A stretch of DNA of 5,623 nucleotides from a virus (taxonomy: Duplodnaviria; Heunggongvirae; Uroviricota; Caudoviricetes), in the IMG/VR virus record IMGVR_UViG_2690316175_000007. One strand, 5' to 3'. The number at the start of each line of letters is the position of its first letter. Within the stretch, counting starts at the first letter, position 1. Of this stretch, positions 1-5,623 are shown piece after piece. The notes beneath the pieces are model-generated. The model did not search any database, was not told the DNA's origin, and was given only the letters and a program-made list of their open reading frames with translations. A program made the translations under genes and the position numbers.

Positions 1-2
1 CC

Positions 3-335
3 ATTCTATTTCAGGAAGGAGTGTCCGTTAAACTCAGGCTACCTCAATTTGCGCTGGGAAGTGGTGCGCAAGTTGCGTCTAGTGGCGATATTTATGGTTC
101 AGTGTGGGAAAACAACTGGTTAAGCACATGGCTGCATAATCATGTCGTTCGGGATATTCGTCTTGGCAGCATTGAATATAAAAACGTATGGCGCGACTAC
201 GGCTTTGGCGATGCGTCAGGTTATGTTTTAACAGCCGCAATTAACAGCAATGCGGATGATATTGTCGACACTGTTGCCAGAAGGCCAATTCAGAAATTGA
301 TTGGGGGAATATGGTACAACGTGGGGAGTGTTTAA
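3..335 (+). CDS. stf: Side tail fibre protein, C-terminal variable domain (5'-partial, expressed orientation of the invertible segment)
   Basis: The frame is open from the window edge (the track's GTG at 21 is not the true start) and stops at TAA 333-335, 1 nt before the tfa start. The C-terminus ([17 protein letters not shown]) is homologous to the end of the - strand cassette ([17 protein letters not shown]). Position immediately upstream of tfa matches stf-tfa operon organisation. Confidence 0.7.
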
Positions 336-336
336 G

Positions 337-864
337 ATGATGCACCTGAAAAATATTAAGGCCGGGAATCCGAAAACACCGGAACAATACCAGCTAACTA
401 AAAAAGCGGGCGTGGTATGGCTCTTTTGCGAAGATGGCAAAAACTGGTATGAGGAACAAAAGAATTTTCAGCCAGACACCATAAAAATTGCTTACGATGA
501 GAACAACATCATCGTTGCTGTCAGTAAAGACGTTTCAACTATTAATCCTGAAGGGCTAAGCATAGTTGAAGTTCCTGATATTACGGCAAATCGTCACGCA
601 GACAATAACGGAAAATGGATGTTTCTGGATGGTAAAGTAGTAAAGAGGGAATATACAGAACAGGAACTGCAACAACAGGCCGAATCACAAAAGGCCGCAT
701 TGCTTTCCGAAGCTGAATCAGTCATCCAGCCGCTGGAACGAGCTGTCAGGCTGAATATGGCAACAGACGAGGAACGCACACGACTGGAAGCATGGGAACG
801 CTACAGTGTTCTGGTCAGCCGTGTGGATACGGCAAATCCTGAATGGCCACAAAAGCCTGAATAA
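337..864 (+). CDS. tfa: Tail fibre assembly protein (Tfa)
   Basis: ATG at 337 (second ATG at 340) preceded by a GGGGAG Shine-Dalgarno. The N-terminus [22 protein letters not shown] and the C-terminus ...[27 protein letters not shown] are typical of the Tfa family (as in Mu U, lambda Tfa). Stop TAA 862-864. Confidence 0.85.
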
Positions 865-870
865 AAATTA

Positions 871-888
871 AGGCCCGATAGCGGGCCT
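871..888. terminator. Bidirectional intrinsic terminator between the convergent tfa genes
   Basis: GC-rich hairpin AGGCCCG-atag-CGGGCCT lying between the + tfa stop (862-864) and the - tfa stop (893-895). It is flanked by an A-run on the left (a U-run for - strand transcripts) and a T-rich stretch on the right. Confidence 0.6.
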
Positions 889-892
889 TCTC

Positions 893-1426
893 TCATTCTG
901 GTTGTTCGGGAAACGTTACTGGCAGGCTGGAGGTGTCTGTGGATTCAACCTTCTGCGCATAGAGCATCCACTCGGTTAATTTTTGTTTATTCTCATCGGA
1001 AATGATGCCCAGCTGTAGCTGAGAGTCCCACAGCTGGGTTTTATCCCTGACGAGCTGCAGCAGGCTCTGCTTTTCATTTTCCGCTTGTTGCCTTTGCTCT
1101 TCCTCGGTATAAGTTCGCTTTATCACCGCACCATCTTTGAACATCCAGTTGCCCGAAATATCAGCCCGGCGATTTGCTGTAATATCAGGCAACTCAACGA
1201 CACTTAAACCTTCTGGATTAATTGCTGATACATCCTTGTCTATAGCAATAATTATTCCCTCAACTGTGTAAGCCAGTTTTATTGTATCCTCCTGAAAGTT
1301 TTTTAATTCCTCATGCCAATTTTTTCCATCTTCGGACCATAACCAGATAACATCAAAATTCTTTGTTAGCTGGTATTGTTCAACGGTTTTTGGATTACCT
1401 GCGACAATGTTTTTTAAATGCTGCAT
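893..1426 (-). CDS. tfa: Tail fibre assembly protein, alternate copy (Tfa') of the invertible segment
   Basis: 177 aa starting [22 protein letters not shown]. The N-terminal two thirds resemble the + strand Tfa and the C-terminal third diverges. It starts 2 nt after the stop of the upstream - strand tail-fibre cassette. Confidence 0.85.
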
Positions 1427-1428
1427 GA

Positions 1429-1578
1429 TTATACCTGCGATACGTTATACCATGTTCCGTTAATTAACTTTTGTATTGGTCTGAATACTGCCGGATCATC
1501 ACCATCGACTTCACCGATAATACCAAGCCCCGTGATTACATGGCCTGATTTTTCATACATCACGCCTTTCTTCATGGT
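1429..1578 (-). pseudogene. Post-amber C-terminal remnant of the stf' cassette
   Basis: The same frame continues after the TAG for 49 codons ([49 protein letters not shown]) and ends at TAA 1429-1431. This tail is conserved with the C-terminus of the + strand stf copy, so the TAG is a recent nonsense change rather than the native stop. Confidence 0.6.
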
Positions 1579-2355
1579 CTAAACAACTCGTGTGCCAAGT
1601 CTGACATCTCTCACATAGCGGGAATCAAAGTTACCGTAATCCGAGGGATTAACACGTCCCGTAATATTTATGGTTTTATTACTTTGAATGCTTCCGGAGA
1701 CAAAGCGCATAACATGGACGTTATTAGCATAAACATCCAGATTACCATCGCCTTTTTGTTTAAAGCCCGTGTCATTATCACCCAATACAATCGAATTACC
1801 GCCAAGAGCACTGGATGTTCCGATACCCAGTGCACCATTCAGTTGACCACCAGATAACGGCAGTGCACCAACATCTCCTGCTGAAGGTTTTCTGGTGGTG
1901 TAAAATTCGGACCAGTCGGCTTCAAAACCATAACCATCACGGGCTGAACGATAAAAAATACCGCCATTTTTATAATTAATCCGAAACTGAGCTGCAGGAC
2001 AACTTCCTTCTCCCATATAAAAATGAATAATTAACGTTGATGCACCACTAATAGTTGCGTTATAGGCTCCGCTACTCCAGTTCCATCCAACTGCTTTATC
2101 ATTCGCAACGGTGCTTCCTGTTTTCCCTAAGGCAAACGCACCAACATGACTTGCTTTTAATGTGATATCGGAGGAACCATCAAAAGCCACATTGCTTATT
2201 TTCCTGGCAGTTTTTAATTTTGCAGCTGTAGAAGCATTGCCGGATAGTTCACCAGAAAGGCCACCGCTGAATGTTTGTCGATTAGTCCAGGTATTCGCTG
2301 TACTGAGTAACGGTATTTTCTCCCCGCTTGTGCCGAGTTCTCGTAAACCGAGGTT
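1579..2355 (-). CDS. stf: Alternate side tail fibre variable cassette (stf'), silent orientation, with no start of its own; interrupted by an in-frame TAG at 1579-1581
   Basis: On the - strand the frame is open from 2355 (just inside the crossover site) down to the TAG at 1579-1581. The translation (...GEKIPLLSTANTWTNRQTFSGGLSGELSGNASTAAKLKTARKISN...VRDVRLGTRVV*) is glycine/serine-rich and tail-fibre-like. The track ORF 1579..2190 is the Met-delimited part of the same frame. Confidence 0.7.
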   Translation of the reverse strand, partial: NLGLRELGTSGEKIPLLSTANTWTNRQTFSGGLSGELSGNASTAAKLKTARKISNVAFDGSSDITLKASHVGAFALGKTGSTVANDKAVGWNWSSGAYNATISGASTLIIHFYMGEGSCPAAQFRINYKNGGIFYRSARDGYGFEADWSEFYTTRKPSAGDVGALPLSGGQLNGALGIGTSSALGGNSIVLGDNDTGFKQKGDGNLDVYANNVHVMRFVSGSIQSNKTINITGRVNPSDYGNFDSRYVRDVRLGTRVV

Positions 2356-2363
2356 TTAGATAA
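2338..2363. other. 26-bp site-specific recombination (crossover) site of the Gin/Pin/Hin invertase family; right boundary of the invertible segment
   Basis: TTCTCGTAAACC-GA-GGTTTTAGATAA: two imperfect inverted 12-bp half-sites around a 2-bp core. About 23 of 26 positions match the Mu gix site as I recall it. It lies inside the stf' reading frame and 55 bp upstream of pin, as in Mu G, P1 C and e14 P segments. Confidence 0.7.
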
Positions 2364-2417
2364 TGGCGGTTTCTGGCCTGCATGGCATGATTTGTGCTTT
2401 TGGACGGGAGATTCAGC

Positions 2418-2744
2418 GTGCTGATTGGCTATGTAAGGGTATCAACAAATGACCAGAATACAGACCTGCAACGAAACGCTCTTGTTTGTGCAGGATATGA
2501 ACAAATATTTGAAGATAAATTAAGCGGAACAAGGACAGGCCGACCTGGATTAAAACGTGCTTTAAAGCGCCTTCAAAAAGGTGACGCACTGGTTGTCTGA
2601 AAACTGGACTGACTGGGGCACTGTATGCGGCATCTTGTCGTGCTGGTGGTGGAAGCCTAGAAAAAGTATCGGGTGTTGCTGAACCGTGTTGATACATCAA
2701 CTGCACCTGATATTGAGTGGCCTGCAAATCCTGTCAGGGAGTAA
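2418..2744 (+). pseudogene. pin: DNA invertase Pin/Gin-family serine recombinase, inactivated: in-frame TGA at 2598-2600 and 2610-2612, then in-frame fusion to a tfa 3' fragment carrying a TAG at 2658-2660
   Basis: GTG start at 2418 with a GGGAG Shine-Dalgarno. MLIGYVRVSTNDQNTDLQRNALVCAGYEQIFEDKLSGTRTGRPGLKRALKRLQKGDALVV* is the serine-recombinase catalytic N-terminus (active-site Ser in YVRVSTNDQ). The stops fall where Pin, as I recall it, has Trp61 and Arg65. After ...LVVLVVE the frame reads [29 protein letters not shown], which is a Tfa C-terminus. The C-terminal helix-turn-helix domain is absent. Confidence 0.8.
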
Positions 2745-2792
2745 TCATTGGGATTATGCCGCAGCACGTCTTAAGCAAGAACGTGCTGCGGT
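2651..2792 (+). repeat. tfa 3'-end remnant copy A plus downstream hairpin; direct repeat of copy C
   Basis: Positions 2664-2764 are identical to 3944-4044 (101 bp). The flanks differ by a few substitutions (for example TAG here versus TGG in copy C) and a 1-nt indel in the hairpin. Confidence 0.85.
2759..2791 (+). terminator. Hairpin after tfa remnant A (putative intrinsic terminator)
   Basis: 11-bp stem CCGCAGCACGT / ACGTGCTGCGG with an 11-nt loop. A T-run (2802-2807) follows about 10 nt later, which is not ideally placed. It lies between the remnant stop and the convergent methyltransferase stop. Confidence 0.4.
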
Positions 2793-2798
2793 TGGATG

Positions 2799-3467
2799 CT
2801 ATTTTTTCCCTGAAGCGGAAAACATTACTACAGTACCTTGAACCTTGGTTTTAACATTCTCGAAATGCTCTGAGAGTATATGTGTTAAGCCTTCTTCGGA
2901 ATCTTTTGTGTTTGAAAAGATGCCTTTCTGATTGTAAATGCGCATCAGTTTTTGACCGAAGCTATTGTGCACAACTCCATCGCCAAGAATTGTGGCTCCG
3001 TATAGAGTTCCATCGTCAGTTAAGGCCTGCGCCGCATTGCGTATTACACAGCTTTTTGTAGATATATTTCCAGGCAGGCAGTGAAGAAGGTAAAACATGG
3101 AAATGGAATCAAATTGACCATGTAACGCCGCGGGATAAGGTTCAAAAACATCATGGCTAATTTTATGTTTAATTTTTGATTCCCCAGCCCTTGTAGATGC
3201 CGCGTTCAGGCTAGCTTCGTTCAAATCCATTAAAGATATCAGACTACTCTCAGGTACGTGAGTAAGGTAAAACCCAGTTCCAACACCAATATCCAGATGG
3301 TTGTTACCTAAATGTTCCAGAAAGTGTGGAAGAAGGTGTTCCTTTGTAGGACATCCCCATGCAAGCCGATTTGATACTCCCAAAACCCACCAGTCATAAA
3401 GCTTTAGGGTAAGTGGTGTGTAAATTTTAGCCCCATCATCTGTGTTTGTTTTCATTGATTTCACCAT
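2799..3467 (-). CDS. Class I SAM-dependent methyltransferase (small-molecule type, UbiE-like fold); probable phage moron
   Basis: 222-aa ORF; a second ATG at 3455 has a better Shine-Dalgarno (GGTGA). Motif I is HLDIGVGTG, with an acidic post-I residue (LMDLNE), motif II around FDSISMFYLLHCLPG, and motif III LTDDGTLYG. The N-terminal YDWWVLGVSNRLAW resembles the UbiE-type YD...S.....W pattern. There is no DPPY/NPPF or PCQ DNA-methyltransferase motif. It may be a homologue of the e14 ymfD product (similar length, same annotated function), but I cannot confirm this from memory. Confidence 0.8.
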   Translation of the reverse strand: MVKSMKTNTDDGAKIYTPLTLKLYDWWVLGVSNRLAWGCPTKEHLLPHFLEHLGNNHLDIGVGTGFYLTHVPESSLISLMDLNEASLNAASTRAGESKIKHKISHDVFEPYPAALHGQFDSISMFYLLHCLPGNISTKSCVIRNAAQALTDDGTLYGATILGDGVVHNSFGQKLMRIYNQKGIFSNTKDSEEGLTHILSEHFENVKTKVQGTVVMFSASGKK

Positions 3468-3486
3468 GTTATAGTTTTATTTGTGA

Positions 3487-3515
3487 ATTAAATCAATTAT
3501 GGCGATGAATTACAA
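3487..3515 (-). promoter_or_regulatory. Putative sigma70 promoter for the methyltransferase
   Basis: On the - strand: -35 TTGTAA (3510-3515), 17-bp spacer, -10 TTTAAT (3487-3492), about 20-30 nt upstream of the start codon. Confidence 0.3.
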
Positions 3516-3559
3516 GGGGTTAAATGCTGCCGCAGCATAGCGATATTGAAATAGCCTAG

Positions 3560-3791
3560 TATGCTTCGATACAGCAGGAGCCGAATGGCTGGAAGACCGT
3601 CACCACACAGTTCTACATCCAGGAATTTAGTGAGTATATTGCGCCACTGCAGGATGCTGTAGATCTGGAAATCGCAACGGAGGAAGAAAGATCGTTGCTG
3701 GAGGCATGGAATAAATATCGGGTATTGTTGAATCGTGTTGATACATCAACTGCACCTGATATTGAGTGGCCGGAAGAACCAGACACAATGT
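3560..3791 (+). pseudogene. tfa 3' fragment B (C-terminal ~77 codons of a tail fibre assembly gene, no start codon)
   Basis: The frame opens after TAG 3557-3559 and reads ...[68 protein letters not shown]. This aligns with the C-terminus of the intact Tfa (...[46 protein letters not shown]). A 38-bp core is identical to copies A and C. Confidence 0.6.
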
Positions 3792-3865
3792 AAGGCAGTA
3801 TGACTTTCCGTGAGACAGATGCTGGCCAACGTGGGATATTTAACGCGGGTTAACATCGTTGTCAG

Positions 3866-3926
3866 NNNNNNNNNNNNNNNNNNNNNNNNNNNNNNNNNNN
3901 NNNNNNNNNNNNNNNNNNNNNNNNNN
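3866..3926. other. Assembly gap (61 N)
   Basis: Run of N characters. The track ORF 3862..4194 (-) with X residues is an artefact of this gap. Confidence 0.95.
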
Positions 3927-3928
3927 TG

Positions 3929-4024
3929 CTGGAAGCCTGGAAGAAGTATCGGGTGTTGCTGAACCGTGTTGATACATCAACTGCACCTGATATTGAGTGG
4001 CCTGCAAATCCTGTCAGGGAGTAA
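3929..4024 (+). pseudogene. tfa 3' fragment C (starts at the gap); direct repeat of copy A
   Basis: Reads [32 protein letters not shown] with TAA at 4022-4024. Positions 3944-4044 are identical to 2664-2764. Unlike copy A, the Trp codon is intact here (TGG). Confidence 0.6.
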
Positions 4025-4038
4025 TCATTGGGATTATG

Positions 4039-4072
4039 CCGCAGACACGTCGTATGCAGGAACGTGCTGCGG
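4039..4072 (+). terminator. Hairpin after tfa remnant C (putative intrinsic terminator, bulged stem)
   Basis: CCGCAGaCACGT ... ACGTGCTGCGG, followed by the T-rich TTAGTTTGTGAGCTTTCG. Confidence 0.35.
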
Positions 4073-4435: not shown

Positions 4436-4993
4436 TTAAAACCGCATCAACCTTTCCACCAATTGTTCTTTACGGGCAACGATCCACCCATGTTGCTCCA
4501 GATAAAATTTAAACCGTTCCAGAGTGCATACCATCGCATCGGCGGGGACTTTTTCTGTGAACTCGACCTGACCGTGTTTATCGAAGTGGATCAGTAATGC
4601 GCATCCATTATTTGGGGCGGGGGAGTTTTGTGCTGCAGGAGGACGTTTGTGGAGTTCTTCTTCCATTGCGTTAAATTTTTCAATGTAAGCTTCTTTTAGT
4701 CTGGCTGCTTTTTTGCCAGTAAATCCCATTACGAGGAACATGAAGCCGTCTTTTGTGATCAGGTAGCATCGTGATTCACGTTCTGCGCCGTTGCCAATTT
4801 CGACAGTCTGAACATCGGCCGAAAAGTTGGCTGATGTAAATTCGGGAGAGCAGTCGAGTGTGTCAATCTTAGCTAAAACGTGTTTATGTTGTTTATCGAA
4901 GTAGTCGGCAACAGCTTGAGAGGTGGTAACCAGGCGACCATCTTTGAAAAAGACTTTTGGTGACTCGTTAGAAAAAGTTATAGCTGTATTCAT
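4436..4993 (-). CDS. rha: Rha-family phage regulatory protein
   Basis: ATG at 4993 with GGAG 9 nt upstream; the track's TTG at 5008 is less likely. The N-terminus MNTAITFSNESPKVFFKDGRLVTTSQAVADYFDKQHKHVLAKIDTL matches the Rha N-terminal domain signature (LVT.S..VA..F.K.H..VL..I). The C-terminal half is unassigned. Confidence 0.75.
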   Translation of the reverse strand: MNTAITFSNESPKVFFKDGRLVTTSQAVADYFDKQHKHVLAKIDTLDCSPEFTSANFSADVQTVEIGNGAERESRCYLITKDGFMFLVMGFTGKKAARLKEAYIEKFNAMEEELHKRPPAAQNSPAPNNGCALLIHFDKHGQVEFTEKVPADAMVCTLERFKFYLEQHGWIVARKEQLVERLMRF

Positions 4994-5020: not shown

Positions 5021-5054
5021 TCACCACCTCTGACGCCAATCAGGGAGGTGGTGA
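5021..5054. promoter_or_regulatory. Perfect 10-bp inverted repeat in the rha leader/promoter region (candidate operator or RNA hairpin)
   Basis: TCACCACCTC-(14 nt)-GAGGTGGTGA, 28-61 nt upstream of the rha ATG. It overlaps a TGATCA palindrome at 5017-5022. Confidence 0.4.
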
Positions 5055-5275
5055 GACGTACAGGGTTGGCGTAACCGGTCATCACAAAACCCGGCGCGGA
5101 TTTCTCCGCCCCTGCACGCCCCACCATAATGCGAATGTGGCAATGCTTAACGCAAAAAAAACCGCAAACGCGGCTATGCGTTGTGATGTTATCCGAGACG
5201 CCAATCCCGACAACCGATTTTGCGGTTGTGTGAGGAATATAGCCCCGGAGAACAAAAACTGTCAACGGGCAAAAA

Positions 5276-5284
5276 NNNNNNNNN
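5276..5284. other. Assembly gap (9 N)
   Basis: Run of N characters. Confidence 0.95.
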
Positions 5285-5463: not shown

Positions 5464-5579
5464 ATGTCAGTGTGGTACATGGATATCGATACCATCGCCA
5501 ATTATAAACTGGGCGGTGCACAGCAACATGATAGCGTACGCCTCGATCCGTGGGTGTTTATGTTCTCAGCAGGATATCG
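5464..5579 (+). CDS. Hypothetical ORF, 5' part only; reading frame runs into the IS1 end (probably disrupted by the insertion)
   Basis: ATG at 5464 directly follows an in-frame TAA. It reads MSVWYMDIDTIANYKLGGAQQHDSVRLDPWVFMFSAGYR and continues into IS1 sequence. The - strand here is closed by stops. An AT-rich promoter-like region lies upstream. No family was recognised. Confidence 0.25.
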
Positions 5580-5623
5580 GGTAATGACTCCAACTTATTG
5601 ATAGTGTTTTATGTTCAGATAAT
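5580..5623 (-). mobile_element. IS1 insertion sequence, terminal 44 bp (right inverted-repeat end; element continues beyond the window, transposase genes on the - strand)
   Basis: GGTAATGACTCCAACTTATTGATAGTGTTTTATGTTCAGATAAT matches the reverse complement of the IS1 right end (…ATTATCTGAACATAAAACACTATCAATAAGTTGGAGTCATTACC) as I recall it. Confidence 0.9.

Follow-up and report, generated by a model that had tools for sequence, protein, structure and literature searches.

Does the tail-fibre switch at the left end of a 5,623-nt viral DNA stretch still turn in the genome that carries it, and does its segment still turn in that genome's closest relatives? The stretch (IMG/VR record IMGVR_UViG_2690316175_000007, class Caudoviricetes; its full length is called the window herein) holds, within positions 1-2363, two convergent tail-fibre modules that end at a crossover site next to invertase-type sequence. 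An earlier note, made from the sequence alone, had held that the window opens inside a Gin/Pin-type host-range switch. While the family assignment and the geometry were borne out by the present analysis, a working switch at this locus was not: the window begins inside the insertion sequence (IS) IS600, the invertase is a dead stump, and one fibre cassette carries a nonsense codon. The device in this genome is very probably a frozen, non-functional relic of an invertible segment of the Din family. Invertible tail-fibre segments of the Gin, Pin, Cin and PinB types have been textbook material since the 1980s. The kind is thus long known (Mu G-gin, P1 C-cin, e14 P-pin, Shigella B-pinB) and the present copy is a decayed one, an ordinary fossil; no description of this orphan locus was found in the literature searched.

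The segment and its inversion in relatives

The features of the segment and its surroundings, in window coordinates, are as follows.

1-46, - strand: terminal 46 nt of IS600 (IS3 family), inserted in the expressed tail-fibre cassette; the contig ends here
47-335, + strand: tail-fibre variable cassette V-A, last 96 codons, with the stop at 333-335; C-terminus of Stf (918 aa) in intact relatives
337-864, + strand: tfa, tail-fibre assembly chaperone of cassette V-A, 175 aa; Pfam Caudo_TAP, E 7.9e-37
870-889: hairpin rich in GC, set between the convergent tfa genes, with a stem of 8 bp (-14.4 kcal/mol, z -3.8)
893-1426, - strand: tfa, tail-fibre assembly chaperone of the apparently silent cassette V2, 177 aa; Pfam Caudo_TAP, E 4.8e-34
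1429-2355, - strand: apparently silent tail-fibre variable cassette V2, from translation; Pfam gp37_C match
2338-2363, + strand: 26-bp Din-family crossover site, bixR-like, TTCTCGTAAACC GA GGTTTTAGATAA; inner half toward the segment, outer half toward the invertase stump
2418-2600, + strand: serine DNA-invertase stump (pin/gin/pinB type), 60 codons; Pfam Resolvase, positions 2-69 of 145 only
2439-2502: candidate Fis-dependent recombinational enhancer within the stump, inferred from two G-N13-C 15-mers 49 bp apart
2647-2764, + strand: tfa 3' fragment joined to the invertase stump, from alignments; the window has three such copies

The 26-mer at 2338-2363, TTCTCGTAAACCGAGGTTTTAGATAA, occurs once in the window and gave 0 matches in 200 shuffles. 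It has the format of Din-family sites, namely two imperfect inverted 12-bp half-sites around a 2-bp core, and was compared with the bix, gix and pix sequences taken from a published table of Din-family sites (PMC3241671), in which gix reads TTCCTGTAAACC GA GGTTTTGGATAA. The window site agreed with bixR at 24 of 26 positions, the two differing bases both lying in the inner half, and with Mu gix at 23 of 26; the central dinucleotide is GA. The bix sites belong to the B segment-pinB system of GenBank D00660, a record said to have been revised from S. boydii (PMC3241671). A gix/pix-like site upstream of an invertase-type gene, as the earlier note had it, was thereby confirmed as a Din-family site closest to bixR. 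No second crossover site was detected in the window at up to 3 mismatches.

To what does this single site correspond in undamaged loci? About 25 complete assemblies, 99.8-99.9% identical to the window, were collected through the exact 175-aa, 48-aa and 177-aa products. In the uninterrupted Shigella sonnei-type relatives L007 (CP032523) and L016 (HE616528, strain 53G), an inverted partner site identical to bixL lies 553-578 nt upstream of the equivalent of window base 1, just where the partner had been predicted (roughly 0.5-0.6 kb upstream, in the constant part of stf). The 918-aa stf of L007 crosses this site in frame, reading VIEYLGLQE, and the frame after a flip goes on as LGLRELGTSGEK; in the window, IS600 takes the place of the constant part. 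Two inverted sites bracketing the segment are present in 13 S. sonnei assemblies, against one only in the window. Paired inverted sites 2.8-3.1 kb apart also surround homologous segments in an E. coli lambdoid remnant, in ST131 and in P2-like and Mu-like prophages.

The earlier note had proposed looking for both orientations of the ~3 kb segment. Both were found in the relatives of the window's genome: among the two-site assemblies without IS600 in V-A, five are unflipped and six (L011, L013, L019, L020, L041 and L042) have the segment turned round between the same flanks. The inversion breakpoints of the flipped assemblies align to window 2343-2367, and their sites are exact reciprocal hybrids, TTCTCG...GGTATTCGATAA on the stf side and TTCCTG...GGTTTTAGATAA on the stump side. 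The segment arms in S. sonnei have nothing in common outside the 26-bp site. Because of these hybrid half-sites and of arms that share only the 26-bp site, the exchange must have been confined to the 12-bp identical core with its central GA, which reads as the signature of serine-invertase strand exchange. Homologous recombination was considered as the cause of the inversion and was rejected, as the arms share 26 bp only and a 12-bp core is too short. Since six assemblies are flipped with exactly hybrid half-sites, the segment is a genuine invertible segment of the Gin/Pin/PinB type.

In the undamaged element, the long stf gene is read across the 26-bp site into either of two alternative C-terminal cassettes, and a separate Tfa chaperone gene follows each cassette. 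The two inverted sites are cut at the central GA by a serine invertase, which rotates the ends and religates them; the inversion turns about 2.94 kb and exchanges the expressed cassette.

The two modules themselves were largely as the earlier note had described them. Two convergent pairs of tail-fibre tip and tfa, with a hairpin between them, were confirmed by the open reading frame (ORF) listing, Pfam and hairpin folding; a terminator score was reached for the - strand of the hairpin only. In the proposed profile check, both Tfa proteins matched Caudo_TAP, and of the fibre frames the - strand one matched gp37_C. The + strand module had been placed at 3-864; its tfa and its fibre C-terminus stood, but the start of the frame did not, as bases 1-46 are IS600 and the module begins at 47. 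V-A showed 99-99.7% identity to the tail-fibre 3' ends of E. coli prophages, including the Mu-like prophage of E24377A, and its frame runs on without a break into the 918-aa stf in L007. The V2 frame starts within the 26-mer; ORF listing and translation revealed it to be closed one codon upstream of the crossover site, its first start being a GTG at 2190. V2 therefore looks like a silent cassette with no start of its own, as had been claimed for the - strand module.

In mosaic fashion, the cassettes are common to this and other prophages. Relative to the E. coli locus L001 (NZ_OZ040035, 4066-7055), the 175-aa tfa of the window shows 69-79% identity over 337-711 and 99% over 712-864, and V2 with its tfa is about 85% identical to the H-G genes of the P2 family. 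In the phage collection, no close relative of the segment was found, the best isolated phages reaching 80-88% identity. The arms of L001 share a nearly identical inverted repeat of about 770 bp, similar to that of the P1 C segment. That L001 might be the window simply flipped was ruled out by per-segment identity: its ~770-bp arms and its differing V-A/tfa allele make L001 a mosaic relative and no more.

Among the characterized systems, the Shigella B segment-pinB (D00660; Tominaga et al. 1991, as given in PMC3241671) is closest to this locus by its sites. It shares the outer half-sites of bixL (GGTATTCGATAA) and bixR (GGTTTTAGATAA), the central GA and one inner half (TTCCTGTAAACC), likewise spans about 3 kb beside a pin-type gene, and comes from a host of the same genus. 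The other inner half, however, is TTCTCG here and not TTCCTG, in both orientation states; the site-to-site distance is 2942 bp, as compared with about 3.2 kb for the D00660 range (600-3788, PMC3241671); and the invertase here is a stump. A dead invertase, and an inner half-site that differs whichever way the segment lies, show that the locus is not D00660 itself. The Mu G segment-gin has the same plan (Sc-gix-Sv-U / U'-Sv'-gix-gin) and the same central GA, and in the Mu-like prophage of E. coli E24377A one cassette reaches 99% identity to 47-335 and the initial 121 nt of gin are one base off the stump. Unlike Mu, the carrier here is lambdoid (stf with a phage_tail_N domain, Lom, J) and the element is decayed. 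The e14 P-pin and P1 C-cin systems likewise use Din-family invertases to flip fibre C-termini together with Tfa, e14 as a cryptic prophage and P1 as a phage. P1 has long inverted repeats, whereas the S. sonnei segment arms share the 26-bp site only. In addition, pix and cix have a central AA instead of GA and differ at more positions (PMC3241671).

Decay lesions and the partner site

Three lesions were directly observed in the window. The first is IS600: bases 1-46 show 100% identity to sequence in more than 3000 E. coli genomes, with the transposase start adjoining, and at the same position in L006 they run on into a 1270-nt element annotated as IS600. The insertion cuts V-A 96 codons short of its stop. 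The exact IS600-stf junction had no match among the genome contigs searched. The second is an in-frame amber codon of V2 at 1579-1581 (CAG to TAG, from the translation); E. coli L001 has CAG at this codon, and every one of the 25 S. sonnei assemblies has TAG. The third concerns the "invertase gene" that the earlier note had placed next to the site, of which the homology held and the completeness did not. A complete serine invertase has about 185-200 aa, comprising a catalytic domain, an E-helix and a helix-turn-helix. The 60-codon stump, in comparison, has lost the E-helix, the DNA-binding domain and the greater part of the catalytic domain; alignments to intact genes revealed that it stops at a TGA where these have TGG, and that degenerate homology goes on to about 2645. 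The fusion to a tfa fragment at about 2647 marks the deletion that killed the invertase. This junction recurs in 239 complete E. coli genomes, ST131 and NCTC86 among them, and is therefore old and predates S. sonnei.

Neither a pair of intact fibres nor a particle-making phage was found, the V2 amber being present in all S. sonnei loci and V-A being cut by IS600 in the window. The morphogenesis genes are gone from the prophage of the closest assemblies, and J is predicted as two ORFs in the two-site strains.

To which kind of genome the window belongs was judged from the relatives, which fall into five classes.

Class A: two sites, window orientation; 5 assemblies
Class B: two sites, flipped; 6 assemblies
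Class C: IS600 in V-A, with the partner site retained at a distance of 1267 nt further out; 2 assemblies (L023, L043)
Class D: the same IS600 directly abuts the lysis genes of the prophage (holin/DUF1327, same strand), with one site; 10 assemblies
Class E: the same IS600 abuts other rearranged early-region DNA, one site; 2 assemblies

Class D seems to have arisen by an IS-mediated deletion that took the entire morphogenesis region and with it the constant part of stf. The 12 assemblies of classes D and E have one site in 20 kb and no partner within 10 kb upstream. Allele 741 A is shared by the window and classes C, D and E; allele 2618 G is shared by the window and 12 of 12 class D/E assemblies, both class C assemblies having 2618 T. 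As 2618 G occurs only in the one-site classes, the partner site has most likely been lost from the window's genome too, a conclusion drawn from single-nucleotide and IS markers since the window ends in IS600. The earlier note had named the lack of an inverted partner within about 1.5 kb upstream as what would speak against its reading; none was present in the 12 allele-matched assemblies, which refutes a functional switch here and confirms a relic. The decay comprises the reduction of the cis invertase to a 60-codon stump, the amber in V2 and the IS600 that cuts V-A, and a deletion or rearrangement at IS600 most likely took the constant part of stf together with the partner site.

Two points weigh against this conclusion. 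In the class C loci L023 and L043, which share the IS600 insertion, the partner is still present, 1267 nt further out, but their allele is 2618 T; and partner loss here is inferred from markers, the window ending inside IS600. Hence a second reading has to be considered, in which the window's genome gained only the IS600 and keeps both sites, as in L023 and L043, so that flipping in trans would be possible, with neither orientation giving an intact fibre. The retention of bixL in these two assemblies speaks for it, and the sequence beyond IS600 lies outside the window's view; the distribution of 2618 G, which the window shares with 12 of 12 one-site assemblies and with 0 of 2 IS-only assemblies, renders it quite improbable. 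The earlier reading, a working switch whose adjacent gene is an invertase and whose segment flips here with a partner 0.5-0.6 kb upstream in stf, has an authentic architecture and site and a partner exactly at the predicted place in intact relatives, but is close to untenable in view of the 60-codon stump, IS600 at 1-46, the amber in V2 and the 12 closest assemblies with no partner within 10 kb. A frozen relic thus remains by far the best account of the window.

The natural series from two sites, unflipped or flipped, through IS600 insertion to IS-mediated deletion could act as a lineage marker. For annotation, the 60-aa ORF should not be called a recombinase, nor the cassettes functional fibres.

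Orientation of the segment in two-site strains

The relatives that keep both sites raise a further question, as the same stump and the same amber occur in both orientations among the S. sonnei assemblies. We slightly favour the view that two-site S. sonnei strains still flip the orphan segment via a Din invertase encoded elsewhere, that the stump is kept as a cis enhancer and not as a gene, and that orientation is a rapidly changing, culture-level heterogeneity in a cryptic prophage. PinB is the obvious candidate, because the outer half-sites are identical to those of bix and the authors of PMC3241671 describe PinB as functional in S. sonnei.

Two observations in the assemblies bear on this view. 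The flipped L013 and the unflipped L040 share one specific IS600 insertion in the N-terminal part of stf. In addition, UGZB01000001.1 (4,959,326 bp), from an NCTC assembly, contains the locus twice, at 11025-19171 and 4945576-4953722, with flanks 100% identical (2 x 2014 nt), the 2950-bp segment inverted between the copies and a constant offset of 4,933,332. At the start of this record (L029, 5025-25171), the trp genes are frameshift-ridden and split into numerous small ORFs, which points to a contig end of low quality. Given the constant offset and these broken trp genes, the record appears to carry an untrimmed end overlap of about 26 kb from an un-circularised assembly, as judged from 8-kb loci; both orientations would then have been present in one DNA preparation.

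The stump may still supply a cis-acting enhancer. Its first 121 nt show one difference from intact gin- and pin-type genes, and the first G-N13-C 15-mer has its centre 95.5 bp from that of the crossover site; for comparison, the Hin enhancer has its proximal Fis site about 100 bp from hixL. In the two-site relatives, the invertase would be supplied in trans and the enhancer retained in the stump.

Against continued flipping, an intact invertase gene was not located in S. sonnei, as no full-length member labelled S. sonnei was seen among the ten clusters listed for an intact gin-like protein, a search that gives no whole-genome view and does not show absence; and the end overlap in UGZB01000001.1 is a reading from coordinates and broken trp genes. 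The segment might alternatively be frozen in all S. sonnei, the orientation differences going back to one old inversion before the decay, to homologous recombination or to assembly error, with no trans-catalysed flipping. The search for a trans-acting invertase gave none, only about 11 two-site assemblies were sampled, and the two copies in UGZB01000001.1 might in principle reflect a true duplication, all of which would fit a frozen segment. However, the pin-tfa junction is older than S. sonnei, in which both orientations nevertheless occur, and the IS600 insertion shared by L013 and L040 is a derived one. Arms that share 26 bp only and an exchange mapped to a 12-bp core speak against homologous recombination, long-read assemblies cannot mis-orient 2.9 kb between 26-bp repeats, and the constant offset of the UGZB01000001.1 copies fits an end overlap. 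Taken together, a segment frozen in all S. sonnei is unlikely, and flipping in trans is slightly preferred by us for the two-site strains. If true, it would be a modest, possibly new point on cross-talk among Din invertases; the weight of the locus for biology at large is very small.

Prophage and genome setting

Window 1-2764 forms the distal end of a lambdoid prophage, now cryptic, that is integrated at ompW beside trpA in a genome of the Shigella sonnei type, an assignment made by way of near-identical complete genomes that papers give as S. sonnei. The gene order of the element is J, Lom, stf, segment, pin stump, methyltransferase, Rha, ash, ompW remnant and trpA, and none of the complete E. 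coli genomes covers more than 76% of bases 1-2700. Among the relatives, CP179990 is listed as S. sonnei 830292 of lineage 2.3 (PMC12511311), and CP037997 belongs to strain FC1653, which a passage on clinical Shigella strains mentions without a species name. An ompW C-terminal remnant at about 5464-5623, on the prophage attachment side where trpA adjoins in relatives, runs into an IS1 terminus at the window end. With an IS600 end on the left and an IS1 terminus on the right, the 5.6-kb window covers the interval from one IS copy to another, the form that a short-read contig would be expected to take; IS600, IS1 and the repeated tfa fragments account for the assembly of this locus as a 5.6-kb island in short-read S. 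sonnei genomes.

The tfa 3' fragment of about 118 nt occurs in three copies (2647-2764, 3696-3813 and 3927-4044), which flank a gene for a class I S-adenosylmethionine-dependent methyltransferase (2799-3467, - strand). The block of tfa fragments and methyltransferase adjoins potB in a single E. coli genome; in ST131 and S. sonnei it lies beside ompW/trpA. Window 3772-3926, consisting of a 94-nt stretch and a run of 61 N, is absent from all 25 complete S. sonnei assemblies, as are the window alleles at bases 2724, 2726, 2729 and 2845, which make tfa-repeat copy 1 resemble copy 3. Both are probably an artefact of short-read scaffolding or collapse among the tfa repeats and not biology. A further run of 9 N lies at 5276-5284.

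At the prophage end, two Rfam matches scored above the gathering threshold, the C4 antisense RNA at 5044-5131 (- strand, 75.9 bits) and isrK at 5155-5229 (- strand, 72.2 bits). They lie just upstream of ash and Rha, the latter at 4436-4993 on the - strand, and C4, isrK, ash and Rha together resemble an immunity-like module of the P1/P7 type.

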